Below are positions 20,401-62,284 of a stretch of 64,000 bases of DNA, piece after piece. This DNA is from Eledone cirrhosa. Taxonomy: Eukaryota. A program made the position numbers and the translations under genes. The notes under the pieces are model-generated. The model did no database searches and was not told the DNA's origin. It worked only from the letters and a program-made list of their open reading frames with translations. Positions within the stretch are counted from its first letter, which is position 1; each line of letters begins with the position of its first letter. Where the stretch lies: the NCBI GenBank assembly GCA_964016885.1, contig OZ024743.1:295554001-295618000 (forward strand), read 5' to 3'.

Positions 20401-20868
20401 GCTTTTGCACCCCCCGCTCCTATCGGATACTCCCACACAGTCTCAGCGTGCGTCTAAGATGCCGTTCCAGTCCCCCGCTAACAGTAAAGAGCGACACGTA
20501 CCCAGAAAGGCTTCCAGGCGTCTAAAGAAGTCCGACCGTCCTGCCATTCTAAAGGCACCACCTTCATTATTGTTCACGTCCAGGACCACCAACTTCCCGT
20601 CCGGGTCCCGGAAGATCGACCTTACCTCGAGATCCAGGCCTTTCCTAAACAGCACTGCCACCCCGCCTCCCATTCCCGGCCGGCTAACAGATGCAAAGAT
20701 CTGATAGTCGTCGGAAATGGGGGCTAGTGCGCGCGTGTCTGATCTCCTGGTCTCGCTGACTGCAATTACATCCATTTCTATAGACCTGAGGTCGTTGAGC
20801 AGGTGACCCTGCTTCCAGGACGATCCCACGCCTCGAACATTTAAACATCCTACTCTTAATACGGCCAT
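17495..20868 (-). pseudogene. Tx1-B ORF2 (APE endonuclease, RT, C-terminal zinc finger), frameshifted
   Basis: NVRG, VSET, GDWNG, YIDR, YSDH; KSPGLDG, AYADD; CPRCAQSDETVLHALVQC. Split over several ORFs. Confidence 0.92.
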
Positions 20869-20899
20869 GTTGGCAGGTTAAACAGAGAGAGATGAAGGT

Positions 20900-22806
20900 T
20901 TATTTACCTTCCGGGCTCTCGTGAAGGTCGGGTTGTTCGACCTCCATAGTTAGTGGGATTGCTTTTGGGAACCCCTTTAAAAGTCTTGAAGTGGGTTTTA
21001 CGTTCGGAGTTCCCACGTCCCGAGCAAAGCTGTCTCGTATTTCCTTGAAAATGTCAAGCGACATTCGCACCAGAACCAAATCTTCCGGCACGCGAAATGT
21101 GCTCGATTTAAAAATTTCCCCCTCTTTTTGTATTTTTTCACTTCAGTCCTTATTGGCCCTCCTGACGAGCACGAAGTTTTGTATGTTTTCTTGGTGTGAT
21201 TTTATTTGTCTGCGTGGCTGTGGTGGTGATGGTTTTGGTGGTGTTGTTTCGGTTGTATCTGTGTTTGTTGTGAGTGCGGTGATTGTCGTTTAAGATGTGT
21301 GTGTGTATATTTCTTCTTCGTCTGTTTCGGTTGTTTGCGTTTGGGGGATTCTGGTGATGGTGATGGTGGTGTTGATGTTGGTGTTATTGGAGTGATGTTT
21401 GCGTGGGTGGTGTCTGCATTTTTTATTGGGGGTGCTTTTGTGCTTTAAGTTTTTTTTTTCTTTTTGTGTTTCCTTTTTTGGATTTTGGGGGATTTTGGAT
21501 TTCCCTCATTTTCACTACTGGTAGAAGAGGGGTCTGTGTCTGTAAGTGTGTCTGTAAGTATGTTTATGGTTTTATTGGTGTGTGTAGTTCCTCGTTTCCC
21601 CCCTGGGTGGTCAATGTTGGTGGTGGTCTTTCTATTGGTGTTGTTTTTGGTGCTTTTGCTGGTGCTGGTGTTGATTGTGGTCCTTGCCCCGGCGTCGGCA
21701 GCAGTGGAGCCTTTCGACCCCTTGCCTCTTTCAGCAGTTGGGGGCAGAAGGCTCGCAAATGGGTTTTTTCCCCACAAACAAAACACTGCGGCCTTTTATC
21801 TTCGGACATAATGTGAATGACCGTCCCATTCTGAAGGCGGATGTGGTCCGGGACTGTCTTCACATACTCGGGCCTGCTCTGGAGAAGGATCTCCAGGTCA
21901 ACCCCGGACCAGTCCTCTCTGGCCGTTCTGGTCACTTCTATAGGGACGGTATCCGTCCCCTACACAATCACACATCCCAGAAGCCACCACATGTCAAGTC
22001 CTGGTAGAATTATCGGAATGCGATGACGGGCCGTTCTTTTTCCCATGTGGGTGGGTACATTATGACCTTGCTGGTTTTGCAAGGAGTCATAGCGTGTTTC
22101 ATAGCGAGGGCTTCTGACTTGAACAACACCGAAATGGTGCCCCTCTCTATTTACTGGGTGTCTTCCCTGATGCACCTCAGCGCGACTTCGACATCTTGTG
22201 GGATTAAAGCTGCCCTTTTGGTTTGTGCTGAGATGCATCTATAATGCACCGTTTTGCGCTCCACTGCCTCAATAGCTTCTACCGGGACAGTTAAGTTGGC
22301 CCAAGTTTGCTCTTGCCTGATGAGCTTCCATGCCTGGGCCAACTTTTCATCTTTGTTTGAGAGGTCCATGTTGAAGCATGGCCTCTTTTTTGCTGCTGCC
22401 GCAGCGAGAGTGTTCTTCTTGATTTCGTTGGGGGTTTTGCTGTCGTTGTTCTTGTTGGTATTGTTGTTAGCACTGTTATCATTGTTGTCTTTGTTGCCAC
22501 CGTTGTTCTCGGTGCAGTTGGTATTGTTGCTGTTGGTATTGTCGCTATTTGTTTTCATGTTAGTGGTATTGATATTGTTGTCGTATTTGTTATTTTTTTT
22601 ATTTTATCTGTATTTTCGTTGTCGCTGTTACTGTCATTTTTTTCAAAATTAGTGTTCTTATTGGTATCATTGGTGTCTTTGTTTACCTTGTTTGTGGTGG
22701 TGTTTGTGTTATCAATTTGTGTTAATTTCGCTGTAGCGCTCCTCTCCACTTCTACGACGTTGTCGCACGACAGCAGACATATCGCTGTGTGGCGTGGCTC
22801 AGCCAT
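20900..22806 (-). pseudogene. Tx1-B ORF1 (gag-like, CCHC zinc knuckle), frameshifted
   Basis: Asn/Thr-rich N-terminus, CFVCGEKTHLRAFC, Pro/Thr-rich region. Confidence 0.85.
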
Positions 22807-26200: not shown

Positions 26201-26608
26201 GAGCGGGACGTTCCAAGAAAGGTCTCCAGACGCCGGAAGAAATCAGGCCGCCCTGCTCCTGTCGGGGCATAGACGGCCACTAGCGTGAAAGCTTTCCCGT
26301 CTCTGCTGGTCACGTCTAGCACCACCAACTTACCTTCTGGGTCCAGTAACATGGCCCGTATGGCGAGATCCAAACCTCTCCGAAAAAGCCCAGCAAATCC
26401 CCCCCCCCCCCGATCCCAGACGGCTGGGAGATGCGTACACATCGTAGCCGCCGAAGATCGGTGCGAAGGCCCGTGCTTCGGAGATTCTGGCCTCGCTGAT
26501 GACCACTACATCTATGTTTAGTGACCTGAGGTCGTTGAGCAGGTGGCCCTGCTTCCATGACGACCCCAAGCCACGCGCATTTATGTTGCCTATTCTGAGT
26601 GAGGTCAT
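23282..26608 (-). pseudogene. Tx1-C1 ORF2 (APE-RT-zinc finger), frameshifted
   Basis: NARGL, VYAP, GDWNG, LDQSKAFDRVDH, VRQGCPLS, AYADD, CPRCTQGDETILH. Confidence 0.92.
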
Positions 26609-26647
26609 GTTGAAATGGAGTGGAAAAGATGGGAAAGACCACTTACC

Positions 26648-28548
26648 TTACTTCTCGTTGAGGAAGGATGGTTTCTCCATCCTTTTCACTGCTTGTGGCC
26701 TCCTCCGGAAGGATGTCCTTATAAATCCTCCTGGAGAGTTTTTGTCGGAAGTCTCCGATGTCTTTGGGGAATTTTTGTTTTAGTGTCGTGTACGTTTTCT
26801 GTGTGATGCGAGTGATTTGTATGTGTGGAGGTGGTGTGAACTTTTGAGTTGTTGTGTAGTCTTTTTCTGTGATGCTTGTGTTGTGTTGGGTGTAGTGTAA
26901 TAATTTAATGCTGTGTAGTGTGTATCGTTTTGGTTGTTTTGTTTTGTTTGCGTTTGTTGTGGGTTTGTTTCTGTTTCGCTTTTTGGTGACTTTTGTGGTG
27001 TTGGTGATGGTGGTGTTTGGGTTAATGATGGTGATGGTATTGGTGTTTGTGGTGATGGGGTTGGTGATGCTGGTGTGGATGGTGGCATATTTGTCCTAAC
27101 TTTTTTGTTTGATAGTTTATTTGTTTCCCTCTGTATTTTGTTTTTGGAGGGGGAAGGAAGAGAATTATTTCATTTTTGGTTTCTTTTTTTCTTTTTTCCT
27201 GATACCGTTTCCCACTCCTCGTCGTCACAATCTGTCTCCAGTTGTGATAGCCTGAGGAGTGGAAAATCCTCCACAGGCGTTGGTTTTGTTTGTGGAGTAG
27301 TGGATGATGTAGGCGCTGGTGCTAGTTCTGGCGCGTTGGGTGGTGGTATTGGTTTTGCTACTGTTGCTGGGGTTGTTGCTGTTACAGTTGCCTCTGTTGT
27401 TGCAGCTACAGTTGTTGCCGCCATCTCTGCTGCTGGTGGTGTTGATGGTTGAGGCACTAGGGTGGGTAAGAGAGGTGGCCTCAACCTTTTAGCCTGAGGG
27501 CAGAAAGCCCTTAGGTGGGTTACTTCACCACAAACGTCACACCTAGGCCTTCTGCCCTCGACGATTACGGTGAGGTGGCTGCCGTCAGTGAGGTCTATTA
27601 CCTCTGGGATCTCCTCAATGCTTTATTGGTCCGCTTGGATCAGGAGCTCCACCCCTCATCCGGGCCAGTTCACCTGCTTTTCTTTCGCTATTTCGATTAT
27701 CTTGGTGTTGGCTTCGATGCCGGCGAGGACAGCAGCTATTAGCCAGGGAATTTCGATGGCCGGTGGAACGTGGATCACCCTGATCTTTACGAGTCTCTGG
27801 CCACAATAGCTTGGGACGAGTGTGAAGTCGTCACTTCTTAATGGGGCCATGGAGTGTTCTCTAGCCTCCTGTGGTGTTTCAAAGAACACGTCCACGTCTG
27901 ATGTGGGGGGTTTTTGGCCCACACATGTCCCAAAGCTTTTTGGATTTGGGACTCGGTGCCCGTTCCACTCGGCGCGATTTTATATTAATTGTTCGATAAG
28001 ACACGGTGCATAGGCGCCGATGGTCCATTTTCTTAGGTGGGGGGTGAAGCTGACCCTGTACCCATCTCTCTTTACCATTTTTGGGGCTTCTTCTAATTCC
28101 TCCCGAGTTACCTGAAATGCTTCGCACTGTTTTGCTACTCTGGCAAGACTCAGGGTGGTTTTCTTAATGTCATTGTTGCTGTTGTTGTTATCGTTATTTT
28201 TGTTATTATTAATTTTAGTTTCAGTTGTGGTGGTGGCGTCAGTGGGGTTCGGTGTGGAAGTGTTCATTTTGGTTGAATTCATTTCGATATCACGAGTTAA
28301 TTTATTTTTTTCTTTTGTTTGTGGTGTCGGGGTGTGGTGGGGTTGGTGGTTGTCGCGGTGGTGGTGGTGGTGGCGGCTTTAACACCTGCTGTGATTGGTA
28401 ATGGCGGGAAATGAATGTCTGCCTGAGACAAATTTAAAATATTGCTACTGCTTATATTTTTAGTGTTGGCAAACGTAGTAATATTTACAATAGTGGTGTC
28501 GGTGTGAGGTGTTAGTTTGTGAGGAAGGAGTGACCCTGAGTCGTCCAT
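26648..28548 (-). pseudogene. Tx1-C1 ORF1, frameshifted
   Basis: Fragments match ORF1 at 48440 (PHKLTPHTDTT, VPSYCGQ, DDEEWETVSGKKK). Confidence 0.88.
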
Positions 28549-31700: not shown

Positions 31701-34061
31701 CTAATACACTAATCCGGTCTCTGTAGGCTTTGCGCGCCGGGAAAGACGCGTTCAGCTTCCAGTAACCAGGCCCTTGTCTATGAAGTCTAGCTATGTCGAT
31801 CTCACAGATCACAAATTTGTGGTCTGTGTAGTCGACTATTTTAAATTGTGGACAACTTACACTAGTTCTCTGCAGAATACCCTATCGAGATACGATCTGG
31901 ATGACCCGATGCGGTTTGTCCATGTCCACATTGGCACATTCGGGTGATCTAGTCGATACCTGTCAGACAATTCAAAACGTCTCAGCAGGTTGGTGAGGCT
32001 CTTGCACCCTTCTCCCCTATCCACTAGCCCCACACGATCCCAGCGTGCATCCAATATACCGTTCCAGTTGCCCACTAACACTAAAGAGCGGGACGTTCCA
32101 AGAAAGGTCTCTAGACTTCTGAAGAAATCTGGCTGTCCTGCCCCTGTTGGGGTGTAGACGGCTACTAGCCTGAAAGAATTGCCTTCGCTGCCGGTCACGT
32201 CCAGCACCACCGACTTACCTTCTGATTCTAGGAAGATGGCCCGTATCGCGAGATCCAAGCCTCTCCGTAAAAGGACGGCGACCCCTTCCCCCGATCCTGG
32301 ACGGCTGGGAGATGCGTATACATCGTAGCAGCCGAAGATCGGTGCGAAGGCTTGTGCTTCGGAGATTCTGGTTTCACTGATGGCCACCACATCTATGTTT
32401 AGTGACCTGAGGTCGTTGAGCAGGTGACTCTGCTTCCAAGATGACCCCAGGCCACGTGTATTTATACTGCCTATTCTGAGTACGGCCATGTTGGATGAGA
32501 AACGGGGCAAGTGAGAAAGGGTCACTTACCTTATTCGTGTGGTGAAGGGACATTACAACCGTCCTTTTCGATGGTCATGAGTGTTTCCAAGAGGATGTCA
32601 GTGTATATCCTCTTGGTAACCGACCCTCTGAAGTCTCCAACTGCGTTGGGGAATTTTTGTTTTAAAGGTTTGTACTGTTCTATTGAGATTTCAATGATGC
32701 TTATGTTTGTCGGGAGAGTTCTTGGTGTTGGTAGGGTGTAGTAGTTTTTTTCTATGATGTCTGTGTGCTGCTTTATATATTGTATGAGTTCTTTTTTTGA
32801 CATGTTTATGGCTGTGTACTTTTGGGGTGGAGGGGTGATTTTGTTGCTGTTTTCTTCTTGTTGCTGTTTGGTGTGTGTGTGTATTGTTGTGTTTGCGTTG
32901 TTGGTGTCTTTGGTGATGCTGGTGGTGGTGTGGTTGTTGTTGTCAGTGGTGCTTGTGGTGGTGATGGTGGTGGTGTTGCTGCAAGTTTCCTTGCTGCCTT
33001 TACCCCTCTTTGTATGCTTTCGCTTTTGGAGGGTGAATCTAAGGGTTTTTCTCTTTTGTCCTTTTTGTGTTAGACCATTTGCCACTTACTCCCGCTTCAA
33101 TCCATGTCGGATTCTGTGGCGTCTGGGAGGGGTATGTGCTCCACGTCTGTTGGTGGTGGTAGTAGAGCCCTCTTCGGCAATTTTGTTGCTGGTGTAGCTA
33201 CTTCAAATGTAGCTATTAGTATTGCCGCCACTGATGATGCTGCTTTAGTTGTCAGAGGCCTTGGTAGGGTGCTACGGACGTTGCCCTCCTACTCACCGTG
33301 GAAGGGGCTTCTTTGTTTGTTACCTGCCCTGCTCTTGGTAGCAGCGGACCAGGTATTGGAAGGAGAGGGGCTTCTTCGCTGTCTTCTGCGGGCAAAAGGC
33401 CCTGAGGTGACCCTTCGACCCACAGAGATAACATTTTGGCCGTCTTCTTTCTACACTTATAGGGAGTTGGAGTCCTTCCTCGATGTCTATGATATCGGGG
33501 ATAGCGTCGATACATTCCTGGTCAGTTTGTATAAGCATTTGCATGCCTATACCTGACCAGTTCTCTCTCCCCATTTTTTCTACTTGCAGCATGGTCGTCC
33601 TGTTCTCAATTCCAGCAAGGACAGACGCGGCCAGCCAAGGTATGGGAACGTCGGGTGGGACCTGGGTCACTTTAACCCTTACAATTTTCTGCCCGCAGTA
33701 GGAGGGCACCAAGACTATCTCCTCACTCTTTAGGGTTTCCAAAGAGTGAGACTTTGGGTCCTGGGGGGTGGCGAAAAGTACGTCTACTGTGGCGTACTTT
33801 CTGCCTCGGGTGATGTGGGTTTTGCGTGCCCAGACGCACCCCAAGGCCTTTTGGATTTGAGCATCCGTGGCTCTCTCCACTCAATGTGAGATTTTGCTTA
33901 CGGTGCGGTAAGTCACCGTCCGTAGCTGCTGGTCCTTGATAAAATCGGGTGGCGGTTTCAGGGAAACTCTATTTGCGCTTCTTGTCACCATGGCCCTTGC
34001 GACTGCCATCTCCTCCTCTGTGACTAACACTGTCTCGATATTTCGGGCGACACCTGCAAAA

Positions 34062-34062: not shown

Positions 34063-34103
<41 letters not shown>
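34063..34103 (+). repeat. (TAA)n between the 5' ends of Tx1-D and Dong-A1 (head-to-head)
   Basis: Direct observation. Confidence 0.95.
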
Positions 34104-41260: not shown

Positions 41261-41322
41261 TCAATTGATAATGGGAATACATATACATATTATCACTATC
41301 ATTATTATTATATTCAAGGGAG

Positions 41323-42353: not shown

Positions 42354-43242
42354 GGTATGTATTTATGTATTCATGTATGTATGTTTGTATGTATACACAG
42401 GAATCAGTGTACCTAAGAAGTTAGCTTCATAAACATGTGATATCGTTTTCTAGTCTGTCGTCAATATGTTTCACTACTTCCTTCGATGCCTACGTTCTGA
42501 TAAGGAACAGTCTGATTATTGACGCCAGTAAAATAATAATTAGATAGATATATGGTATAAATGAGTGTTTTTTTTCTTTATTAGGTTACTAGTTAATTTA
42601 GTTACCTCCGTTTCGACCCTAAGAAAATTTGATAGAAATTTACTACTTGCTCAATGAACCGAAATATATATATATTATCGTTCCATTTCTTCACGCTCTG
42701 TGGAAGGATTAGTGTATAAAATGAAAAGGATTTAGTTGGCTATAAATGAGCACCAGCAATAACTGGAGGTTTAACCCTGCGATTGTCTGGCATGTTCTTC
42801 AGAGAGGAGTCGTGTACTCTCAGTGGCTCCACTCCAAATAAACAGCAGCGCGATAAGCCTTCGGGCTCATGACAGACTTTAAACATTTTTGTTTGACACA
42901 CACACATACGTATATAAATGTATATATATATATATGTGTGTGTTTGAGTGTGTATGTGTGTATACACTTTATTATGGCTAAATATTGAGGTTTGTTACTC
43001 TGGAGTTTTGCTTATTTATTCCTGATGACTCTGTGATAAACAGGTGAGGTTCCAGAGTAGCAAAACTCATTATTTAGCCTTAATATACCGTTTATTTAAA
43101 CTCTACTTCGGTATTGAATATTCTTTTATGTCATACTCAGCCACACACACACACACGCGCGCGCATATATATATATAAAAGAAAATTTTCGCTCAACATG
43201 ACTGAGTACAGTAAATGTAATCTGAGTTTTTCGAATATTTAT

Positions 43243-43380
43243 AATTGTTTCTACTTTTGGCACAAGGTCAGCAATTAACCAGTGCATTACTGGTTCTTTA
43301 TTTCATCAACCCCATAGGGATGAAAGGCAAAGTTAACCTCGGCGGTATTTGAACTCAGACAGTAAAGGGCCGTAACTCTA
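43243..43380 (-). mobile_element. ATT-tailed SINE, 5'-truncated
   Basis: aattgtttctacttttggcacaagg...gatgaaaggcaaagttaacctcggcgg..tttgaactcag. Confidence 0.85.
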
Positions 43381-45228: not shown

Positions 45229-46559
45229 AGTTATGTAATAAACAACATAAGATAATTATTTCATTTACCAGTGGTTTCTTGAAAGCAAACAAAATTTGCT
45301 TTCAGTCATCTGAATGAAAAAAATCCTGGACAAACAAGTCGTTAAAAGAATGAGATAGAAGGCAATCGGTTACGATGGACTATTCAGTGCTGATACAAAT
45401 GATTGTTTTGACATAAAATCCCGTAAATACCCACCTAGAATTAAAGACATGGCCAACTTCGAATTATACCTTGTTAATTTAATTAGTGATATCAAATTTC
45501 GTAAGTACAGCAAAAACTTTCATACTAAACTTTCTAACGATATTTCTAATTTTAAAAATTCTACAAACACCATTGTTCTTTCCGATAAAACAAAAATCTA
45601 TTTGAAGTTAATAGTATTTTGTATAACCAACTTTTAACTAATAGTATCACCAACAAATATCAATTAGCTAACAATAACACCTACAATGCTATTAATAAAG
45701 AAGCTAAAGAACTAGCTTGTTCTTTAAAAATAGACAACCGGATTCAAAGCCTAGCAAAACGTAAATATATATTACCCTTAAAGACCATAAGTTAGACTTT
45801 ACTAATCGACCTAGCTGTAGACTGATTAACCCGGCTAAATCCGAAGTTGGCCTTGCATGTAAAAATATCTTAAGAAAAATAATTCTCCAAATTAGAACTA
45901 AGACTAACTTATCACACTGGTTAAATACATCCTCTGTTATTTCTTGGTTTAATAATATACAAGGTAAAAATAAGTGTAGATTTACCCAATTTGATATTGT
46001 TGATTTTTACCCCTCTATTACTGTTTCGTTATTAACTAAAGCCTTAGATTTTGCAAGACCCTTCATTAACATTTCTAAATTAGAAGACATTATCTTTCAT
46101 GCTAGGAAAATTCTACTCTTTACTAATGAAAGTATTTGGGTTAAAAAGTCAAGCCTTGAAAACTCTTTTGATGTTGCAATGGGTTCATATGACAGTGCGG
46201 ATGTGTGTGACTTAGTAGGATTATTCCTTCTACACACCCTTAAAGAGAAATTTCCTTCCCATAATATCGGTTTATAGCGGGACGGCGGATTGGCAGTTTC
46301 TCATACCACCAACGGCCATAACCTTGATAAATTCCGTAAAGATTTAATCAATACTTTTGCGAACCTAAACCTTAAAATTACTATAGATACGAACCTTACC
46401 AATGATAACTTTCTTGACATTGATCTACTTATCATAAACCTAACGAAAATTTTTAAAAGTCCATGATTTTTTCATTCTGATGACTGAAAGCAAATTTTGT
46501 TTGCTTTCAAGAAACCACTGGTAAATGAAATAATTATCTTATGTTGTTTATTACATAAC

Positions 46560-47054: not shown

Positions 47055-47057
<3 letters not shown>

Positions 47058-47085
<28 letters not shown>

Positions 47086-48180
47086 TTTATTATTGCATTT
47101 ATCTTGCTTTATGTTCATACGAGTTATCACCAAGTCACAATTAGTGACCTCAAAAGACAACAAGGTCCGCCATGCTCAAGAAAGAACATACATACACACA
47201 CATGCATCTTTAGGTGTTTAGACTTGTGATGTACTTATATTGACAGAATATTCCTTAGTATATGGGCAGTTGCCATTAGTACTATCTTTTGTATTTCTCC
47301 TATGCGCGGGTTTCCTGGGATTTGCGATAAGTAATCATTATATTATTATTATTATTACAGTTGCATTTATCTTGCTTTATGTTCATACGAGTTATCACCA
47401 AGTCACAACCAGTGACCGCAAGAGACAACAAGATACGCCATGTTCAAGAAAGAACATACATACTCACACATGCATCTTTAGTGTTTAGACTTGTGATGTA
47501 CTTATATTGACAGAATCTTCCTTAGTATATGGGCAGTTCCCATTAGTACTATCTTTTGTATTTCTCCTATGCGCGGGTTTCCTGGGATTTGCGATAAGTA
47601 ATCATTATATTATTATTATTATTACAGTTGCATTTATCTTGCTTTATGTTCATACGAGTTATCACCAAGTCACAACCAGTGACCTCAAGAGACAACAAGA
47701 TACGCCATGTTCAAGAAAGAACATACATACTCACACATGCATCTTTAGTGTTTAGACTTGTGATGTACTTATATTGACAGAATCTTCCTTAGTATATGGG
47801 CAGTTCCCATTAGTACTATCTTTTGTATTTCTCCTATACGCGGGTTTCCTGGTATTTGCGATAGGTAATCATTAGACCCCTTAGGTATCATTCCCAGAGC
47901 GCCTACAACCACTGGTATTGTTTTAGTTCTCAATTTCCACATTTTTCCAATTTCTATCTCCAGGTCCTTATACTTGCTCAATTTTTCAAATGTTTTTCTA
48001 GATACATTCTTGTCTATTGGAACCAACATATCAATTAGCAGGCATACCCTCTTTTTAAAGTCCTACAATATTATATCAGGTCTATTTGCATCTATTTTTC
48101 GGTCTGTTTGGATGCTAAAGTTCCACAAGATTGAGATGTGATCTTTTTCAAGTATGGGAGGTGGTTGCTGCTCCCACCAA
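47058..48180 (-). mobile_element. Stack of three 5'-truncated Dong-B 3' ends separated by short (TTA)n, with a 267-bp period
   Basis: ORF 47769-48029 matches the RLE C-terminus of 54306-54824. Antisense ORFs at 47240 and 47507 repeat at a 267-bp offset. Confidence 0.9.
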
Positions 48181-48230
48181 TTATTATTATTTTTATTATT
48201 ATTATTATTATCATTATTATTATTATTATT
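48181..48230 (+). repeat. (TTA)n upstream of Tx1-C2
   Basis: Direct observation. Confidence 0.95.
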
Positions 48231-48439
48231 GGCGACCTACGTAGGAAATCGTATTATCGTGAGCTCCGCAAAGGTTTGTTATTTCCGTTTGTTTAAAAAT
48301 TGCCATTTATGGAAAATTTTATTGTAAACTGTTTATAAGCACACATACATTGTTTTCCGAAAAGGACACCCAAAAAGATTGGGGCCTTGTGCCCAAAATT
48401 TTAACTTTTATTATTATCCAAAAATTTCTTTGAAAGAAA

Positions 48440-50432
48440 ATGGCTAATTCCCCTCTGCACGAAGCAGCTGAAAGCCTTCCTCACAAAATAACACCTCACA
48501 CCGACACCACCATTGTAAATGTTACTACGTTTGCCAACACAAAAAAAAATATAAGCAGTAGCAATATTTTAAATTTGTCTCAGGCAGACATTCATTTCCC
48601 GCCATTACCAATGACTGCAGGTGTTAAACCCTCCACCACCACCACCACCGCGACAACCACCACCACCACCACCACCACCGCGACAACAGAAACAAAAGAA
48701 GAAAAAAATAAATTAACTCGTGACGTCGAAATGAAATCAAGCAAAATCGACTCTTCCCCACCAAAGACGACTGACGTCACCACCACAACTGAAAATAAAA
48801 TTAATATCAACGATAGCAACAACAACAACAATGACATTATAAAACCGACCCTCAGTTTCGCCATCGTAGCAAAACAATTCGAAGCGTTCACGGTAACTCA
48901 AGAAGATTTAGAAAATGCCAAACAAATGGTAAAGAAAGATGGGTACAGGGTCAGCCCCCCCCCCCCCCCCACACACACACCTAATAAAATGGAGCATCGG
49001 CGCCTGTGCACCGTGTCGTATAGAACAATAAATGTAAAATCGCGCCGAGTGGAACGGGCATCCGAGTCCCAAATCCAAAAAGCTTTGGGACATGTGTGGG
49101 CAAGAAAAACCCACATCAGACGTGGGCAAAAGTATGGAACCGTGGATGTGTTCTTTGAAACACCAGAGGAGGCTAGAGAACACTCCATGGCCCCATTAAA
49201 AAGTGACGACCTCACACTCGTCCCAAGCTATTGTGGCCAGAGACTCGTAAAGATCAGGGTGACCCACGTTCCACCGGCCATCGAAATTCCCTGGCTAATA
49301 GCGGCTGTCCTCACCGGCATCGAAGCCAACACGAAAATAATAGCAGTAGCAAAAGAAAAGCAGGAAAACTGGTCCGGATCTGGGATGGATCTCCTGATCC
49401 AAGCGGACCAAAAAAGCATTGAGGAGATCCCAGAGGTAATAGACCTCACTGACGGCAGCCACCTCACGGTAATTGTCGAGGGCAGAAGACCTAGGTGTGT
49501 CGTTTGTGGTGAAGGAACCCACCTAAGGGCTTTCTGCCCTCAGGCTAAAAGGTTGAGGCCACCTCTCCTACCCACCCCAGTGACAAAACCATCAACACCA
49601 CCAGTAGCAGAGATGGCAGCAACAACTGTAGCAGCAACAACAGAAGCAACTATAACAGCAACAACCCCAGCAACAGTAGCAAAACCAACACCACTACCAC
49701 CACCAGCAAAACCAACACCACCACCACCCAACGCTTCAGAACTAGCACCAGCGCCTACACCATCCACCACACCACAACCAAAACTAACGGCTGTGGAGGA
49801 TTTTCCACTTCCCGGCCTATCACAACTGGAGACAGATTGTGACGACGAGGAGTGGGAAACGATATCCGGAAAAAAAAAAGAAACCAAAAAAGAAAAAATT
49901 CTCTTCCTTCCCCCTCCAAAAACAAAATACAGAGGGAAACAAATAAACTAAGAAACAAAAAAGTTAGGACAGATATGCCACCATCCACACCAGCATCACC
50001 AACCCCATCAACCCAAACACCAACACCATCACCATCATTATCCCCAGCACCACCATCACCTACACCACAAAAGTCACCAAAATTCGAAACAGAAACAAAT
50101 CCACAACAAACGCAAACAAAACAAAACAACCAAAACGATACACACTACACAGCATTAAATTTGAACAACAAGCAATTATTACGCTACATCCAACACAACA
50201 CCAGCATCACAGAAAAAGACTACACAACAACCCCAAAATTCACACCACCTCCACACATACAAATCACTCGCATCACACAGAAAACGTACATGACACTAAA
50301 ACAAAAATTCCCCAAAGACATCGGAGACTTCTGACAAGCACTCTCCAGGAGGAATTTATAAGGACATCCTTCCTGAGTATGCCACAAGCAGTGAAAAGGA
50401 TGGAAAAGCCGTCCTTCCCCTACGAGAAGTAA
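48440..50432 (+). pseudogene. Tx1-C2 ORF1 (CCHC knuckle; frameshift in A-run near 49875, stop at 50332)
   Basis: 503-aa ORF with poly-Thr/Asn, LSFAIVAK, CVVCGEGTHLRAFC and a Pro-rich tract. Continues in ORF 49852-50334. Confidence 0.9.
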
Positions 50433-50471
50433 GGTAAGTGGTCTTTCCCATCTTTTCCACTCCTTTTCAAC

Positions 50472-53400
50472 ATGACCTCACTCAGAATAGGCAGCATAAA
50501 TGCGCGTGGCTTGGGGTCGTCATGGAAGCAGGGCCACCTGCTCAACGACCTCAGGTCACTAAACATAGATGTAGTGGCCATCAGCGAGACCAGAATCTCC
50601 GAAGCACAGGCTTTCGCACCGATCTTCGGCGGCTACGATGTGTACGCATCTCCCAGCCGTCCGGGATCGAGGGGAGGAGTTGCTGTGCTTTTTCGGAGAG
50701 GTTTGGATCTTGCCATACGGGCCATCTTCCTGGACCCAGAAGGTAAGTTGGTGGTGCTGGACGTGACCAGCGGAGACGGGCAAGCTTTCAGGTTAGTGGC
50801 CGTCTATGCCCCGACAGGAGCAGGGCGGCCTGATTTCTTCCGGCGTCTGGAGACCTTTCTTGGAACGTCCCGCTCTTTAGTGTTAGTGGGCGACTGGAAC
50901 GGGATCTTAGATGCACGCTGGGATTGTGTGGGATTAGTGGATAGGGAAGGAGGGTGCAAGAGTCTCACCAACCTGCTCAGACGTTTTGAACTGTCTGACA
51001 GGTACCGAATGGATTTCCCGAATGTACCAATGTGGACTTGGACAAATCGCATAGGGTCATCCAGATCATATCTAGATAGAGTATTTTGTAGGGAAATAGA
51101 TAGGTCTAGCATAGGCTGTCCACAATTCAAGATAGTCAGCTACACGGACCACAAATTCGTGATCTGTGTGCTTGACTTAGATAGGCTTCATAGACGAGGA
51201 CCCGGCTACTGGAAGTTAAACGCGTCTTTACCAGCGCGCAAGGCCTACAGATACCGGATTAGCGAACTAGTTAAGCGGGCGTTGACGAGGGCCATCGTCA
51301 ACAACAAGTGGTGGTTTGCTCTGAAAAGAGCAATTAGAATAGAGTCCATTAGGTTTAGTAAGACTTTAGCAATAGAGAAAAATAGAGCAGAGGGAGAATT
51401 AGTTAGAAAATTAGATGAGGCGCTTAGCAAAGGCATCGCGACCGACGTGCTTGCGGCGAAATTGGCCCTTGACCAATTCTTCAATGCAAAGCACGAAGGC
51501 TGCGTTGTCAGAGCTAGGGTGCGTGCTCTCAGACACGAGGGGACGAAAGCCGTTCAATGGGCGCGAGTGGCGGAGGCGCGTCGTGGCAACAAAGCCACGA
51601 TCCGGTCTTTGGTGGACCACGACGGGCGCATGCTACTCGATCCCAGGCAAATGTGTGAAGCTTTTCAGCGACACTTCGCTCAACTGTTCGGGGGCAGTGG
51701 CGGGCCGGATCGAGGGATGGACTTTAGTGTCTACCTCGACGGACTGCCGCGGCTTTCGGCCACTGAGGCGGAGTGTTGCGAAAAGCCGATAACAACCGCT
51801 GAAGTACGGGATGCAATGACTAGTTGCACAAGGGGTAAATCGCCTGGTTTGGATTGTCTGCCCTATGAACTTTACGTACAAATGCCAAACTTGTTCGGAG
51901 GCCTCTTGGCGGACGTCTACTGCAACTGGCAACAGAACGGGAGAATTCCCAGCTCTGTGAGCCGAGGAGCGGTGGCGCTGCTGAGAAAGGATCCGAACAA
52001 GGGGGATAACATAGATAATTTTAGGCCCATAACTCTGCTAAACACAGAGTTCAAGATTTTGGCCAAGGTGCTAGCAAAGAGGTTGGCGCTTGTCGTTGGT
52101 GGTCTGGTGGGAGAGGCACAGACATGCGCCATTCCCGACAGATCCATCCACGACAACCTCCACCTCATGCGATACATCGTAGAGAGGGTAGCTAGGGAAC
52201 CTGGCACGGGTGGGTCTTTGATCAATTTAGATCAGTCGAAAGCCTTCGATAGGGTCGACCATCGTTACCTAGCGGCAGTCCTGAGGGCGGCTGGCTTTGG
52301 ACCCGTCTTCAGAGGCTGGATCGCTGCCATGCACAGCGACATCTGCTCTGTAGTGAGAGTGAACGGTCACCTTTCGGAACCGTTCAACATCATGCGCTCG
52401 GTCCGCCAAGGATGTCCCCTCTCGTCCCTATTGTACGTATTGACTCTCGAGCCATTACTGCACAAACTGGAGACGTTGAGGGGGTCCCGCGCGAACTAGG
52501 ATGCGGAAGATCCGTGTCAGCATATGCCGACGATGTCACCGTAGTGGTGTCAAACGCCAAACACATCGAGGCGATCGGCACTACACTAAGAGAATACGAA
52601 GCGGTGACAGGAGCAATGATCAACCAGGAAAAGTCAGTGGGCCTGCAGCTCGGCACCTGGAGAGGCAGGTCCATGCCGTCCAACAGCGTCGTCGGGCGCT
52701 GGACGGACGGACCGGTTAAATTGCTAGGGGTCTGGTTCGGTCCAGACCTCCAGACGGACAAAAACTGGGACGAGGTGACGAGCAGGGTGGTTTCTCTCAC
52801 CCAGAAATGGGCCGAGAGGAAGCTATCCCTGAAAGGTCGAGCGGAGGTGGCGAATGCGTACATCGCATCCGTCATCTACTACCGCCTGACCGTCGTACCT
52901 TGTCCTAAGCCCCGCCTGACTGCGCTGGAGCGTTTGCTCTTTCGCTTCTTGTGGAAGGGACGCGCTCCGATGGTCAGGTGGTCCATCTGCTGTCAACACC
53001 CGCTACGTGGAGGGCTGGGCATGCCGTGGCTGATGATGCGCAGGCACGCGCTCAGGCTACGACATCTCCACCTCTTCCTCGACGGTGATCAGGTGTGGTC
53101 GCCGTTTGCAAGACACGTTTTTCCCCAGCTCGTCTCCTTGACGGAGCTGCAGTCCTGGGTCAAGCGAAGACTGAGAGGGAGCGCTTAGAGACTGGAATGT
53201 CTTCAGGCGCTCACAGCCCTCGACCAATCGGGCAATGTGATCGGAGGAAACTCCACCTTGGCGTTCTATAGAGGATTAGTGGAGGGGAAGAGCGACGACG
53301 TACTTGGAGAAACTCTAGGCGTCGACGAAAATCAACTAGCCAATCTCTTCGGAAGGACTTTCGGGCCGGGGCCTATGGACAACTTCCAGAAATCCCTGGC

Positions 53401-53880
53401 CTGGCAGTGCTACCGAGGAGCTTTGCCAGTTCGGGATAAACTCTACAGGCATGGAGGTGCCGTCAGCCGGGCATGTCCGAGATGCGCGCAGGGCGACGAA
53501 ACCGTCCTGCACGCACTCGTCCAGTGTCCGAGCATTGCTGACTTGTGGGTTTATGTCGAACACCTGCTGTCACGTGTAGGACGGATCCAGCTATCAGCTG
53601 AGTCCATCGTGAGGATTGCCCCTTTAGCCTGGAAGGGCAGGCAGTTTTTATCTGTCTGGTGGCCATGGCGAAAGAGATAGTATGGTGGACACGTTTGAAA
53701 GGGCTGAAGACGAGCACTTACCTCTTCGGTGATGCCCTGATTAACTTTTTCAAATTTCATTTGAAAAGGAAAATCAGGGTAGAGAGGGAAGTGCTCTCTT
53801 CCCAGCATTTTGTTGAAAGGTGGGTGCGAGAAGCAAGTATGGCCCGAATGAATGGGCCTTCTCTGAGTATGTGTCTGTAA
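50472..53880 (+). pseudogene. Tx1-C2 ORF2 (APE-RT-zinc finger) with three lesions
   Basis: 675-aa open APE+RT, a frameshift near 52485, TAG at 53186, and a 10-bp deletion near 53621 relative to C1. Confidence 0.94.
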
Positions 53881-54123
53881 ATTAAAGGTGGAAAACTGGG
53901 AGAGGGCACTTGCCCTGGTGGTCAGGGCCACTGTGGTCTTTTAATGGGCTTTCTCCACAAATGTCCCTTGGAAGTCTCCCCCCTATTGGGGAATTTTTCT
54001 TTGTTATTTTATTTCAACCTCTGTTTTTTTTACATGCAGAAATGCCCATTTGTACCGTCCTGTATTGTCCTGTACTGTCCTTAATGTCTACTTTATGTGA
54101 ACCCTTGTGGTTAATAAAGAAAA

Positions 54124-54124
<1 letters not shown>

Positions 54125-54154
<30 letters not shown>

Positions 54155-54160
54155 TTTATT
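54125..54160 (+). repeat. (TTA)n between the 3' ends of Tx1-C2 and Dong-B (tail-to-tail)
   Basis: Direct observation. Confidence 0.95.
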
Positions 54161-56742
54161 ACAGTTGCATTTATCTTGCTTTATGTTCATACGAGTTATC
54201 ACCAAGTCACAACCAGTGACCTCAAGAGACAACAAGGTCCGCCATGTTCAAGAAAGAACATACATACTCACACATGCATCTTTAGTGTTTAAACTTGTGA
54301 TGTACTTATATTGACAGAATCTTCCTTAGTATATGGGCAGTTCCCATTAGTACTATCTTTTGTATTTCTCCTATACGCGGGTTTCCTGGTATTTGCGATA
54401 GGTAATCATTAGACGCCTTAGGTATCATTCCCAGAGCGCCTACAACCACTGGTATTGTTTTAGTTCTCAATTTCCACATTTTTCCAATTTCTATCTCCAG
54501 GTCCTTATACTTGCTCAATTTTTCAAATGTTTTTATAGATACATTCTTGTCTATTGGAACAGACATTTCAATTATGAGACATACCCTCTTTTTGAAGTCC
54601 TTCAATATTATATCAGGTCTATTTGCATCTATTTTTCGGTCTGTTTGGATGCGAAAGTTCCACAAGATTGAGATGTGATCTTTTTCAAGTATGGGAGGTG
54701 GTTGGTGCTCCCACCAATTCTTTTGATGGGGCAGGTCAAAATGCTTACACATTATCCAATGTATGTATTGTGCAGCTCTGTCATGCCTGTTTAGGTATTC
54801 GGTTGGAGCTATAGGACTGCACATTGAAATTATATGGTCAATGGTCTCTGGTTATTTTTTGCATGCACGGCATAATGGGGTGCATCCATTTTTTATTATG
54901 TTGGCTTGGTAATTTTTTGTTGGCAGACACTGATCTTGTGCTGATATAATCAGTCCTTCAGTCTCCGATTTCAGTCCAGAGGATGCCAACCACTGATGGG
55001 TTAAAGTGTTGTCAACATCAGGATTGTTAGCTCGCTCTGGGTTTTTTCCATACAGAGGCTTTCCTTGCCATTTCTTAGCCAGTTTCTGTAGCAGTTCTTT
55101 CTTTGCAGTTACTCTTACCTGCTTTGCTTTTTCTGTGTTTTCCATTTCAGCAGTAAATGGGACTTCTGAAATGTGTAGTCCATTACTGTATCTTTGTGCA
55201 TCTTTTGTAATGGAATATGATCTTTTGATGCTTTCGTGTTTCAAAACGAGTTTGATCATCCAATCATGTGATTCCCTTAGATATGTAGATAATCCAATTG
55301 TTGCAGTTTTCAACGCAATGTCTAACTGGATTAACCAACGTACTCCTTCTTTCCTAGGGAGATATATTCTATCTATATCTGCCTTAGGGTGATGCATTCT
55401 GTGCATGGTTAAGAGTTTTCGAATTTTTGTATCGAGCCTACGGATCTCTGTGCTTGACCAGTTGATGACATTGTAACTGTAGGTTACTACTGGTATGGCA
55501 AGCGTGTTTATGGCATCGATCCGATTCCTTGCATTCAATTCCGTTCTTAAGATTGCTCTTACTCTGCGTCTGCGGTAACATGCCTTCCTTATCCTTTCCC
55601 TCATTGTCGAGTGCTTGATTCCGTCTCCTTCACAAACACCTAGATATTTGTAAGTTTTTTCTTGATCAAGTTCCTTATCACGTTCCCCCGATCAAGATTA
55701 ATGTCTGAACTCTTCAGCAGCTTTCATCTGGTGAACGTTGCTTTGGCGCATTTGTGTAGTCCAAACTCCATTTTAATGTCATCACTGAACTGCTCCACAG
55801 TGGATAATAGCCCTTGCAATTGTTCATCATTTTTTGCAAATAGTTTCAGGTCATCCATGTAGAACAAGTGATTAATGGTTTTGTCATAGACTTTATATCC
55901 ATGTTTTGTTTCATTGAGCATTTTACTTAATGGTATAAGTGCGATGCAGAATAAAAGCGGTGATAAAGAGTCACCCTGAAAAATTCCACAATTAATATTA
56001 ACTTCTCCAGCTTCCAGTGATTTTGTTTCACTATTCAAAAGGAGTGTCGTATTCCATGTCTTCATACTGAATGACAAAAACCTCCTGACAACGGGGGATA
56101 TTTTGAAAATCTCTAAACATTTTTCAATCCAACTGTGTGGCAAACTATCGAATGCTTTTTTATAATCTATCCAAGCAATCGATAGATTTTTGTGTCTATT
56201 ATGACGATCTTCCAGTATCATTTTGTTAACCAGAAGCTGATCCTTACAGCCATATGAGCCTCGTTTACACCCTTTCTGCTCAATGGGAAATAGGTCATTT
56301 GTTATCAGGTGGTCATATGTGTATTCAGTTAGGACTGATGTTAAAATTCTATACATTGTGGTCAAGCAAGTTATCGGTCTATAATTTTTGGGATTGTTTG
56401 TCTCATCATTCTTCGGAAGCAGAAATGTAATGCCGTTAACTAGCCATGATGGTATCTTTTCTGGCTCCTTAACTATTTCATTGTAAAGTTGGGCTAACAG
56501 CTCATGAGACTCTGTGGAGGCATTTATCCAAAAGATTTGTATTTTGTCTTTTCCTGGGGATTTCCATTTGCTGGTTTTTCTTAGAGCCAAGCGCAACTGT
56601 TCAACTATTATATTTTCCCATATTTGTTCCTCAAAGTGAGCTGTATCTTTCATTTGTCTGTCTATCCATGGGGCATGTATGTTATGAACTTTTTCTTCGG
56701 CCCAGATCTTTTCCCAGAATTCTTGCACTTCCTCCTTGGGTG
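54161..56742 (-). mobile_element. R4/Dong-clade copy B (second family), 5'-truncated
   Basis: [48 protein letters not shown] and RPDIILKD..IEMSVP in ORFs 55724-56728, 54852-55604 and 54306-54824. Confidence 0.93.
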
Positions 56743-59700
56743 GTTAACTGGAAAGTTTGTTGAAATGAATATCAAGCCACTACCTGCAGCCTCAGATATG
56801 CAGGACGTATCGGAGGGTTCTTGCTGTTCCCAGCAAGCATGCCTTTTGAAGCGTTCCAAAAAGCGTGGCGGGGCCAATTTTCTTTAACCATCCCTGTAAA
56901 CTTTTTGAGATAGTACCTAGTGCGCCTATGACAATCGGGACCACTTTGACTTCATGGTAGTTCCAAATCCTTTTTACCTCCCACTTTAAGTCCTGGTATC
57001 GATTAATTTTCTCCCTCTCCTTCTCTTGCACTCTCGTGTCGAATGGGCAAGCCACATCCACAATCAGGCACGATCTTTTTTCCTTGTCCAAAACCACCAG
57101 GTCAGGTCTATTGTGTTCCAGTTTCTTGTCCGTCTGTATCCTAAAATCCAACAGCACCTTCACCTGATCGTTTTTTATCACCGACTCTGGCTTATGCTCA
57201 TACCACTTCTCAGAATGTGGTAAATTGTTTACTTTGCATAGGTGCCAGTGGATCACCCTGCCCATCACATCATGTCTCCAGCCCTTAGAGTGAGTCTGGG
57301 CTAGGTGTTTACACTCGGATACAATGTGAGCCACAGTCTCCCCTCTATCACCACAGATCCTGCACAGTGGGCTAGCCTCCTCTTTGTAAATATGGTGTTT
57401 CAGCCACTTCGTTTTGAGGGCCTGCTCTTGCGCAGCCATTAGCATTCCTTCTGTAGCCTTTTTAAGGTCTCCTCTTTTCAACCAGTTCCATGTCTGTGGA
57501 TCTCTGAATTCAGTTTTCTCAAAGAGGGTAATATGAAGGGATTTTTCATGAAGGCTGCTCTTTCTCCTTGTTGTTATTTCATCCTTGGACATCTCCTGGT
57601 CTATTGTCCTCTCCTTTAGTACAATTCTGAGCATTGGCTCCTTACTATCAGACACGTATTTGTGTAGGTTGTTTTTCTCCATCTGAACACAGTCCTCTAT
57701 GCTGATAAGACCTCTTCCACCTTCAGATCTCCTTAAGTAGAGTCTATCGACATCACTCCTCTTGTGGAACATGTTGTAGATAGTCAATAGCTTCCTAGTC
57801 TTCCTATCCATTTCTTTTTGTTCAGCAACATTCTATCTCACAATTCTCACACTGTACCTAATAATAGACACAGCTCGTGAATGTACTGTACTTATGGCAT
57901 TCCTACTGTTCAGATGTGACTTTAATACGCTCCTTACTCTCCGAAAGTATTCAGATATTATCAATTCCTTCATTTTTTTGTTCTTGATGTCATCAGCCTC
58001 CAGAACACCCAGATACTTGTATCCTTCTTCAGTGTCAATTTCCATTATCATCTCACCTGTTGGTACCTGTATTCCGTTGCTTCTGCTCAATTTACCCCTC
58101 TTCATCACAAGGACTCCACACTTGCATACATATATCATTGCTGAAAATACGGACAGTGTCAACAAGCACATCCTACTCCTTCTCACTCTTCCCGAAGAGC
58201 TTAAGATCGTCCATGAAGAGGAGGTGACTGATGGTAAGCTCTCCCTTTCCCGACTTGTATCCTGCTCTCACTTTTCACAGTATAATGGCCAGGAGCATCA
58301 GGGCAAGGACAAACAACAGAGGGGACAGACTATCTCCCTGGAAGATACCTCTCTTGATCGTCACACCTCCCAAGGATACTCCAGTTGATGTTAACTCTGT
58401 TTTCCAGGACTTCATACTTTTGCCCAACAACTGTCTGATGTTATCTGCCACCTTGACGATCTCCAGGCTTTTGGTGATCCAAGAATGAGGCACCATGTCA
58501 AATGCTTTTTTGTAGTCTATCGATTCCATGGCAAGACCAGTGTGTCTCCTCTTGCAATTCCTCATTACCATCTTATCAATAAGTAACTGGTCCTTTGTAC
58601 CACGGGACTTCTTTCGGCATCCTTCCTGTTCGTCCGGTAACAAGTTGTTTGTGTGGAGGTGATGGTATTTCCTCAGACATAATGCTTGTCAACAGTTTCC
58701 ACATTACGGATAGACATGTGATAGGTCTATTGTTGGTAACATCATTACCCTTGATTCGGTCTTTCATTATCAGAACTGTGGTACCTTTTGTCAACCACTC
58801 TCGTACCTCACCTGACATCAAGCAGTCATTGAACATGGTTGTCAGTTTCGGATGGAGGGATGTTATATTTTTAATCCAATAACCCTGCACACCATCTGGG
58901 ACTGGTGATTTCCTGTTGGTTAGTTTTTTTACCTGCTCCTTAAGAGTTTCAACTGTGATACTCAAATCAGTTTGTTGGTGTGCCTGTTCAATAATCTCCT
59001 TCTGTACTGTTTCAATCGACACTGCCTGGTCATTATGTTTAACATCCTGCTCCCATATTCCTCTCCAGAATGTTTTAGTTTGTTCCTCCTCAGGGATCAA
59101 GTCGTTGCCTCTTACTTTCCCTTCAAGATGTCCAAACAACATCTTCTGGTTGTTGTCGAACATGCAGTTCTGTCTATACTGGCTGGCTCTGTTCTCGTAT
59201 CGCCTGATTGTTGCAATCTTTGCTACAATGCGTTGCTTCAGTTCCTCTATGATAATATTTAGCTTTTTCCTCATAGTTTTGTACTTTATTTCCAGTCTAT
59301 TTTTAGTGTCTATATTTTTTAGTGTCCCATTCAGTAGGGACTCAAGCTTTCCAATGTCATTTCTCATTTCCCTGATTTGACCACTCAGTCGTTTCTTCCA
59401 CCAAGGCTCTGCTCTTTCTTGTCTGTTGTTTCCTCTCGCTTTTATACCAAGTAGTTTCCTCACCGTATTTGCTGTTGCTTTGAGGATATTGTTGCACTGG
59501 TGAAGGCTCCTCGCCTCAAGGTATGGGATGACTTTGTTTACCTTAGCTGTTGTTTCTTTTAACTTTTTTCTGTATACAAATCTTAGGTTCATAGGTTTCC
59601 CACTATCATTGTTCAATCCATCTACCACTAAGTTTAGGATATCAACCAAATCTTGTCCTAGCCCATCAGCATTCATCTCCTCAGTGGCCGTATCTCTGTT

Positions 59701-62228: not shown

Positions 62229-62279
<51 letters not shown>

Positions 62280-62284
<5 letters not shown>

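Follow-up and report, generated by a model that had tools for sequence, protein, structure and literature searches.

A donor-shaped motif kept at the ORF1-ORF2 junction of Tx1-like retrotransposons in Eledone cirrhosa, and its possible place in a cassette for ORF2 reinitiation

A 64,000-nt stretch of Eledone cirrhosa contig OZ024743.1 (assembly GCA_964016885.1, positions 295,554,001 to 295,618,000; hereafter the window) carries four related copies of a non-LTR retrotransposon, C1, C2, D and B, which represent at most three lineages and not independent origins. Copy C2 is near full-length (Table 1), with an ORF1 interrupted by frameshifts and one stop. ORF2 contains the Pfam domains Exo_endo_phos (APE endonuclease), RVT_1 and zf-RVT, and its best solved relative is L1 ORF2p (E 9e-39, versus 1e-17 for R2). 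These elements have the organization of the L1/Tx1 type: an ORF2 with APE endonuclease, reverse transcriptase and a C-terminal zinc-binding domain, a separate ORF1 with a zinc knuckle (zf-CCHC in D, E 0.0027, below the curated cut-off), and a 3' simple-repeat tail without LTRs. Self-BLAST of the window returned no terminal repeats, and the 3' ends consist of AATAAA followed by (ATT)n tails. Stretches of (ATT)n flank all four copies on both sides, one side being the element's own tail and a single window being a biased sample. Domain layout and target pattern together suggest the Tx1 label, and target-sequence preference is reported as common in the Tx1 clade (PMC4494074). In Octopus vulgaris, L1-Tx1 families are reported as recently active (13 families, 421 insertions; PMC13282606), so that an octopus host would be expected to carry intact copies. 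A further remnant, E (about 14555-17193, minus strand), has lost its junction through an internal deletion.

The original prediction placed a consensus splice donor at the boundary between the two reading frames. We found TAAG/GTAAGT at 50430-50439 (+, C2), 26650-26641 (-, C1) and 32533-32524 (-, D), and AAG/GTAAAT at 20910-20902 (-, B), exactly as described. The flanks are diverged, as had also been claimed: in a three-way comparison of C2, D and B, identity is 0.32 over 1431 ORF1 columns and 0.28 over 32 spacer columns, and 73 of 172 four-fold ORF2 sites are identical, whereas the motif is identical at 8 of 9 positions against a background of 0.28-0.42. In 200 dinucleotide shuffles, AGGTAAGT is expected 0.06-0.075 times per element. 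Complementarity to U1 is 8/8 in C1, C2 and D, where the junction donor ranks first among 282, 296 and 303 sense GT sites respectively, and 7/8 in B, which differs at +5; this change weakens the U1 duplex from about -11.5 to -6.8 kcal/mol and lowers the rank to 15 of 311. Such complementarity to U1 is as expected at the 5' splice site of a U2-type intron.

A perfect donor is not, however, unique to the junction. Three of the four copies contain a second one within the E-G-K codons of ORF2 (GT at 50743 in C2, 26333 in C1 and 32218 in D), indicating that perfect donors in this element can come from coding alone, and one antisense perfect donor occurs in C1 and in C2. Among 2601 TAA triplets in the window, 10 have AGG before and GT after, and 3 of these 10 are the junctions described here. 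Wherever GTAAGT occurs at phase 2, its own letters place a stop in frame (PMC2911113).

The original prediction misplaced the ORF1 stop in part of the copies. In D, ORF1 does terminate at the TAA preceding the donor, but in C1 and C2 this first TAA does not close ORF1, whose conserved C-terminal frame continues to E-V-R and stops at the TAA contained in GTAAGT. In B, ORF1 terminates G-K-stop beyond the donor, and D retains an in-frame G-K-stop behind its first stop, as in B. Relative to C, D lacks one base beside the motif, and the roughly 3.3 kb of its ORF2 contain 7 indels that break the frame and are private to this copy. The motif has thus been kept despite a change of ORF1 frame between lineages. 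Because the stop lies inside, before or after the donor depending on lineage, the predicted splice product varies, which speaks against a single spliced message common to the lineages. For C2, readthrough of the first TAA in frame into ORF2 was rejected, as the upstream frame differs from the conserved ORF1 frame.

Downstream of the donor, the spacer is pyrimidine-rich and AG-free in all four copies, as originally described, but the stated lack of an acceptor is true of the spacer only: AGs conserved in 4/4 copies lie 14 and 19 nt past the first base of the ORF2 ATG. CAAC-ATG follows 38 (C2), 38 (C1), 40 (D) and 39 (B) nt past the GT. As it is invariant while the spacer is only 0.28 identical, ORF2 appears to have its own start, which a fusion-only route would not need. 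A junction profile search found no fifth, intron-less junction in the window. The original prediction had overlooked the acceptor-like YAG inside ORF2, the spacer's extreme pyrimidine content, the invariance of CAAC-ATG, and a predicted hairpin upstream of the motif (hairpin 1).

Hairpin 1 was found without alignment at nearly the same position relative to the GT in each copy (-38, -38, -37 and -37). Of its 28 cells 27 are paired, 2 changes are two-sided, and it was the only such helix in 26 realigned ORF1-side windows under two alignment modes. Its covariation is not significant, with 71 of 500 pair shuffles reaching the observed value, and a whole-element alignment yielded no helices, hairpin 1 being lost through gap placement in B. 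Within the motif, AAGG forms the 5' arm of a predicted 4-bp consensus stem with TAA in the loop (16/16 cells paired). Single-sequence folds vary by lineage (z -3.25, -1.54, -0.91 and -5.37), and in lineage C a longer predicted stem with the spacer competes against hairpin 1. The predicted cost of opening the donor is 6.3-9.6 kcal/mol. Among 60 spacer shuffles per copy, a single one matched the burial of the donor in D and likewise in B, but burial was no better than shuffles in C2 (18/60) or C1 (5/60), and the ORF2 control donor of D is likewise buried (2/60). No Rfam family matched the window at gathering score; a known Rfam element was discarded as a candidate, the only match near the junction being at chance level (E 0.56). 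UGGGA is absent within -150 to +40 of the stop in C1, C2 and D and occurs at -108 in B, and a classical TURBS was set aside, since 3/4 copies have no UGGGA near the stop.

Table 1. Positions in the window of the C2 element, its junction features and the corresponding junctions of the other copies
Feature	Position	Strand	Remarks
Element C2	48231..54124	+	near full-length L1/Tx1-type non-LTR retrotransposon; (ATT)n on both flanks
Further predicted upstream hairpin, C2	50343..50377 (ends approximate)	+	last ORF1 codons; also folds in C1 and D; folding prediction only
Hairpin 1, C2	50396..50416	+	predicted 7-bp stem, 7-nt loop; starts 38 nt before GT; common to four copies
Donor-shaped motif AAG/GTAAGT, C2	50431..50439	+	GT at 50434-50435
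ORF1 stop (TAA) of lineage C, inside donor	50435..50437 (C2); 26645-26643 (C1)	+ (C2); - (C1)	conserved C-terminal frame
Spacer pyrimidine tract, C2	50442..50467	+	92% pyrimidine; at least this in 0.04% of equal windows of the element body
CAAC-ATG, ORF2 start, C2	50468..50474	+	invariant, 4/4 copies
First AGs after C2 donor	50483..50490	+	CAG ending 50485 would give an intron of 52 nt (phase 2, keeping the ORF1 frame of C); TAG ending 50490, one of 57 nt (phase 1)
Second perfect AG/GTAAGT, C2	50741..50748	+	from endonuclease E-G-K codons; control site
T-rich tract and CAG in 3' UTR, C2	54008..54039	+	acceptor-like in C1/C2 only
C1 junction	26606..26684	-	hairpin 1 26684-26664; donor GT 26646; stop 26645-26643; ATG 26608
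D junction	32487..32566	-	hairpin 1 32566-32546; stop 32533-32531 ahead of donor GT 32529; ATG 32489
B junction	20866..20944	-	hairpin 1 20944-20924; AAG/GTAAAT with GT 20907; AATAAA 20904-20899; stop 20902-20900; ATG 20868

Searches for relatives of the junction-flanking regions returned little. A profile of the ORF1 C-terminus matched 0 of 4779 longer candidates and 0 of 327 near-length candidates, with no usable Atlas match, and an ORF2 search matched 2 of 2986 candidates, neither covering the N-terminus. A prokaryotic genome collection gave 17 pattern matches and 0 confirmed relatives.

Our leading, still tentative, interpretation places the motif in the middle of a conserved junction cassette, consisting of the hairpin, AAGGTAA (which adjoins the ORF1 stop or includes it), the pyrimidine tract and CAAC-ATG. 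This cassette would act on unspliced bicistronic RNA for termination-reinitiation of ORF2. Ribosomes done with ORF1 would be held and then restart at the ORF2 ATG 31-41 nt downstream. Hairpin 1, which ends about 14-23 nt ahead of the stop, would just have cleared a ribosome that terminates there and could act as a tether for its small subunit. Part of the likeness to a donor would come from the TAA stop. The site itself, predicted to be partly buried through pairing with the spacer, would bind U1 or splice only rarely, by analogy with a conserved, seldom used donor of human L1. The interpretation builds on the observed anatomy of the junction, its conservation, the stop positions and the retention of the spacer in 4/4 copies. 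It accounts neither for the invariance of AAGGTAA at the level of primary sequence nor for its standing as a top U1 match.

Several features of this arrangement have precedents. Termination-reinitiation is the proposed ORF2 route in L1 and SART1, which likewise have a bicistronic non-LTR RNA with the ORF2 AUG soon after the ORF1 stop and an RNA structure proposed to help (PMC5972666). By contrast, the gap from stop to start is 31-41 nt here, 63 nt in L1 and an overlap in SART1 (UAAUG coupling), the shared structure lies upstream of the stop here and downstream in SART1, and the treatment of these junctions in PMC5972666 describes no donor. The predicted stem-loop near the end of ORF1 may also recall the TURBS of caliciviruses and influenza B, whose stem keeps a fixed distance to the stop; there, unlike here, stop and start overlap and UGGGA is the expected motif, yet some viral reinitiation cases use an upstream structure without UGGGA (PMC5972666). 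The donor G98U99 of the human L1 5' UTR, which gives rise to SpIREs, is a conserved LINE donor that, as ours may be, is seldom used, kept for an overlapping function and maybe sequestered by structure, but that donor is part of the promoter (RUNX3 site) and has documented spliced copies, whereas ours lies at the end of ORF1 and no spliced copy was seen (PMC5860796).

The junction can alternatively be read as a retained mini-intron, which we consider unlikely. The donor would be spliced inefficiently to the first YAG inside ORF2, removing the ORF1 stop and ORF2 ATG to give an ORF1-ORF2 fusion protein, and unspliced RNA would give ORF1p and serve as template. This would be the Ogre arrangement in a LINE: in Ogre the inter-ORF region is spliced from a subset of transcripts to produce a fused polyprotein, but that is an LTR element with a region of about 274 nt and experimentally shown splicing, whereas here a non-LTR element has a putative intron of 52-58 nt with its acceptor in ORF2. 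The layout looks like that of a full short intron (strongest U1 site, pyrimidine tract of extreme content, 45-51 nt free of AG, YAG), and the first YAG is in frame with ORF1 in 3/4 copies (donor and YAG both at phase 2 in C1 and C2, both at phase 1 in B). Joining would replace the L-R of ORF2 by V-R in C and keep the first endonuclease strand pattern. Consistent with this, an ORF1 C-terminal domain in relative P0047 (hhalign E 0.0017, probability 15%) leads through G-E and a pyrimidine-codon spacer into the start of ORF2, and G-K and G-E are each compatible with GTRAG. The exception, D, stops ahead of the donor as found; this may be decay, because of its missing base and private ORF2 indels, but a chance indel within those 25-30 nt has a probability of only ~5% at D's rate. 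The intron would also fall below the 65-nt threshold for human short introns (PMC4463651); a 56-nt intron has been studied (PMC8363638), and the literature searched gave no intron-length limits for octopods. Branch-point candidates 18-40 nt ahead of the AG, judged by eye against the consensus, are present in D and B, with no clear one in C. The pyrimidine tract ends at least 18 nt before the AG, itself partly fixed by ORF2 coding. The Arg codon that supplies the phase-2 AG varies (R in 10 and K in 4 of 17 close relatives, those of 151 proteins with at least 44% identity, the N-terminus covered and Trp present, the rest being dropped), and the ORF2 ATG is invariant. None of the four copies is intron-less, even though cis preference would copy spliced RNA (PMC5860796). 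A spacer-less join of ORF1 C-terminus and endonuclease is absent among the 151 proteins, a weak objection since the ORF1 C-terminus searches had no matches at all. One protein, P0151, joins an ORF1-like region to the endonuclease; being only 35% identical and retaining the linker, it was not counted as evidence for fusion.

Somewhat less probable again is an unspliced U1 landing site, at which U1 binding without splicing would increase the output of full-length RNA, either by aiding transcription or by preventing polyadenylation close by. The top U1 rank in C2, C1 and D and retention regardless of ORF1 frame are as expected of a nucleotide-level signal, AATAAA overlaps the site in B, and C has hexamers 263-492 nt upstream. 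The Arabidopsis Copia element EVD has a strong conserved donor near its structural/enzymatic gene boundary, at which U1 both splices and blocks premature termination, but EVD is an LTR element with one ORF whose subgenomic poly(A) site has been mapped, and here no shared poly(A) site lies near the junction (PMC5580714). The suppression of polyadenylation offered in the original prediction found little if any support: each copy has 0 or 1 AATAAA/ATTAAA in 3.3 kb downstream, the hexamers lying upstream instead, except in D, whose 1533 upstream nt are free of them. For B, opening the site is predicted to cost more (9.6 kcal/mol) than the U1 duplex yields (6.8), and hairpin 1 is left unexplained. 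Improbable, too, is neutral inheritance of a chance Arg-stop or Gly-Lys-stop ending, undecayed so far in three related lineages. There are only three lineages, C and D share the coding-derived second donor, one further block at least 8/9 identical exists on the ORF1 side, and D has the G-K-stop of B after its first stop. Against this, the binomial chance of at least 8/9 is ~0.001-0.006 at a per-site identity of 0.32-0.42, before post-hoc choice, and the spacer's pyrimidine extreme and hairpin 1 are retained while sequence diverges. Least credible, and very improbable, is the long splice first suggested, joining the donor to a 3' UTR acceptor (an ORF1-only mRNA) or to a host exon. A T-rich tract and CAG do occur about 85 nt ahead of the tail in C1 and C2, and in C2 no other of the 268 downstream AGs passed our acceptor filter. 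As D and B lack this site, a conserved 3' UTR acceptor was nevertheless rejected; the ORF1 stop would be removed in C and B, and bicistronic RNA already favours ORF1, leaving the ORF1-only message weakly supported at best. The window contains no copy lacking ORF2 from this GT, and no candidate host exon was found in its unmasked parts, where 0 of 17 distinct donor-like sites had an acceptor and open frame.

In the literature searched, outside which lie most subscription journals and Repbase, we found no description of a LINE junction cassette or a retained LINE mini-intron. How LINEs produce ORF2p from bicistronic RNA is still only partly understood, and a compact junction cassette conserved across diverged families is a directly testable element. 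If the mini-intron were used instead, a non-LTR element would be keeping a functional intron despite copying through RNA.

The window is repeat-rich animal DNA, and it holds four non-LTR copies of L1/Tx1 type that retain the junction between ORF1 and ORF2, together with a related remnant that has lost it. ORF2 contains APE endonuclease, RT and zf-RVT domains; its nearest solved structure is L1 ORF2p, and its only named protein match, 57% identical, comes from the octopod Argonauta hians, pointing to a likely octopod host. Identity between C1 and C2 (together, C) is 0.91 in ORF1 and 0.96 in ORF2, falling to 0.58 and 0.83 between C2 and D and to 0.48 and 0.76 between C2 and B. Every junction-bearing copy has decayed, with private frame-breaking indels in the ~3.3 kb of ORF2 (C2 2, C1 5, D 7, B 6). 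The remnant E has a B-like 5' end; missing from it are the junction, the bulk of ORF1 and roughly 150 codons from the start of ORF2.

Repetitive elements of the window
Feature	Position	Strand	Description
B	17221-23010	minus	non-LTR, ORF1-ORF2 junction present
C1	23038-28756	minus	non-LTR, ORF1-ORF2 junction present
D	28787-34062	minus	non-LTR, 5' truncated, ORF1-ORF2 junction present
C2	48231-54124	plus	non-LTR, ORF1-ORF2 junction present
E	14555-17193	minus	fifth related element, junction lost
Other RT element, copy 1	34983-39027	plus	92% identical to copy 2, (AAT)n tail
Other RT element, copy 2	54137-60508	minus	92% identical to copy 1, (AAT)n tail
3' end of other RT element	47057-48185		tandem 267-bp copies
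RT fragment	2573-3460	minus	unlike main elements; Pfam RVT_1 E 0.008
RT fragment	45765-46277	plus	unlike main elements; no Pfam match
SINE-like dispersed family	13129-13895, 41301-41949, 43235-43380, 62269-62479		~200 nt, tandem in places

Elements B, C1 and D follow one another head to tail within 17194-34103, with (AAT)9-13 at each join. In the stretch 48180-54161, C2 has (ATT)n at both flanks, and the intact 5' ends of B, C1, C2 and E begin with GG directly after the repeat, an arrangement that suggests (ATT)n-targeted insertion. The 586 nt on either side of C2 are 97% identical to each other. In the 3' UTRs (e.g. ~53950-54124, plus strand) two blocks are conserved in all three lineages, one CCTATTGGGGAATTTTT-like and the other CCCTTGTG before AATAAA; both are candidates for recognition by the RT. 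The two RT fragments in the table have what we take to be a Penelope-like appearance.

The original prediction placed a consensus splice donor at the junction, and its position is correct: AAG/GTAAGT (AAG/GTAAAT in B), with the GT at 50434-50435 in C2. The motif is real and conserved. Across C2, D and B it is identical at 8/9 positions, against 0.32 for ORF1, 0.28 for the spacer that separates it from CAAC-ATG, the ORF2 start, and 73/172 four-fold sites; one further block among 1431 aligned ORF1 positions is equally conserved. Perfect AGGTAAGT sites, expected ~0.07 times per element, occur twice each in C1, C2 and D, at the junction and again 309-313 nt downstream, where E-G-K codons, whose residues predominate in relatives (E 50/86, G 58/86, K 45/86), encode them. 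By predicted energy, the junction's U1 duplex ranks 1/296 in C2, 1/282 in C1, 1/303 in D and 15/311 in B.

Stops were assigned from the ORF1 C-terminal domain, which is alignable between copies. In C1 its frame is unbroken as far as E-V-R-stop, where the TAA within GTAAGT serves as the stop, and C2 ends likewise after a one-base insertion. D stops at the TAA preceding the donor, with G-K-stop behind that TAA, and B ends in G-K-stop 3' of the donor. The donor's phase is therefore 2 in C and 1 in both B and D, and the original prediction misframed the stop, which lies inside the donor in C, before it in D and after it in B. D lacks one base beside the motif relative to C, perhaps because the D copy has decayed; whether D decayed or not, the motif is conserved at the nucleotide level across differing ORF1 frames. 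Such conservation speaks for a sequence signal rather than protein constraint, and the differing frames mean that splicing would yield lineage-specific products.

Overlooked in the original prediction were the spacer tract, the invariant ATG, acceptor-like AGs, hairpins and donor-spacer pairing. The spacer is 78-92% pyrimidine; within the element body, 0.04% of equal windows in C1, C2 and D reach its level, and 0.56% do so in B. CAAC-ATG is invariant. RNAalifold on the four junctions predicts a 7-bp hairpin (hairpin 1) starting 37-38 nt upstream of the GT and a 4-bp stem built from AAGG with TAA in its loop. Hairpin 1 pairs in 27/28 cells with two two-sided changes, is recovered in 4/4 copies at a matching offset when no alignment is used, and is the sole such helix among 26 realigned ORF1-side windows. 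Counting against it, ORF2 and the 3' end, where conservation is higher, hold 17 overlapping helices of its kind; a shuffle control gave no significance (71/500), and the whole-element alignment did not detect it. Folding predicts pairing between donor and spacer, and shuffles equal this pairing in 1/60 cases in D, 1/60 in B, 5/60 in C1 and 18/60 in C2, so the modelled pairing exceeds shuffles in D and B, not in C1 and C2. Near the ORF2 end (~53740-53770 in C2, ~3330 alignment columns past the donor), a helix of up to 11 bp is paired in 4/4 copies.

A mini-intron fusing ORF1 to ORF2, which would resemble the Ogre intron described in parts of PMC6317226, is rather unlikely. Two AGs, at ORF2 codons 5 and 6-7, are kept in 4/4 copies, and closure at the first YAG would give introns of 52, 52, 54 or 58 nt; the ORF1 frame would be kept in C1, C2 and B but not in D. 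Residue 5 is R in 10/17 and K in 4/17 close relatives, which makes the first AG in part a consequence of coding and less than universal. The best 150 of 1663 matches from a representative protein search, mostly short decayed frames, include P0047, in which a domain resembling the ORF1 C-terminus (hhalign E 0.0017, probability 15%) is followed by G-E-Q, nine mostly pyrimidine-rich codons and the ORF2 start. G-K in B and G-E in the P0047 protein sequence are both compatible with GTRAG, a hint that points to a donor. No spacer-less join of ORF1 to endonuclease appeared among the proteins found, these 150 included; dedicated ORF1 C-terminus searches returned no relatives, which makes that absence weak evidence.

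An unspliced U1 site, resembling EVD as presented in passages of PMC5580714, is improbable: the proposed poly(A) suppression finds 0 or 1 hexamer per copy in downstream ORF2, and several upstream in C and B but none in D. In B a canonical AATAAA (20904-20899, minus) overlaps donor and stop, ~30 nt ahead of the CA of CAAC-ATG. In the B lineage it could end an RNA carrying ORF1 alone, or it may result from the Lys-stop codons. Long splicing from the junction is very doubtful; a good acceptor does exist in the 3' UTR, but only in C1 and C2, and the unmasked parts of the window yielded no candidate host exon for the splicing into host exons once envisaged. Neutral inheritance, which has to accommodate the 8/9 identity, is distinctly unlikely.

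We tentatively prefer a cassette that acts on unspliced RNA for ORF2 restart. For a LINE the template must be unspliced RNA; L1 RNAs that have been spliced are copied in cis and turn into dead ends (PMC5860796). As ORF2 retains its own start and each of the four junctions has the unspliced form, such a cassette is favoured. The likeness to a donor is partly automatic, because GTAAGT contains TAA (PMC2911113). Its weak point is that it leaves the invariance of the top-ranked U1 match unexplained, and the three U1-dependent readings jointly carry about as much weight. No Rfam family matches the junction, the UGGGA test does not place it among TURBS, and a literature search of incomplete coverage gave no description of LINEs with a donor or intron where ORF1 stops. 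Under the cassette reading, ORF1 translation would terminate at or beside AAGGTAA with hairpin 1 just clear of the terminating ribosome, and the small subunit would likely cross the pyrimidine tract and restart at CAAC-AUG. The junction would then work like that of L1 and SART1, for which, as for viral cases without UGGGA, parts of PMC5972666 propose restart after ORF1 termination.
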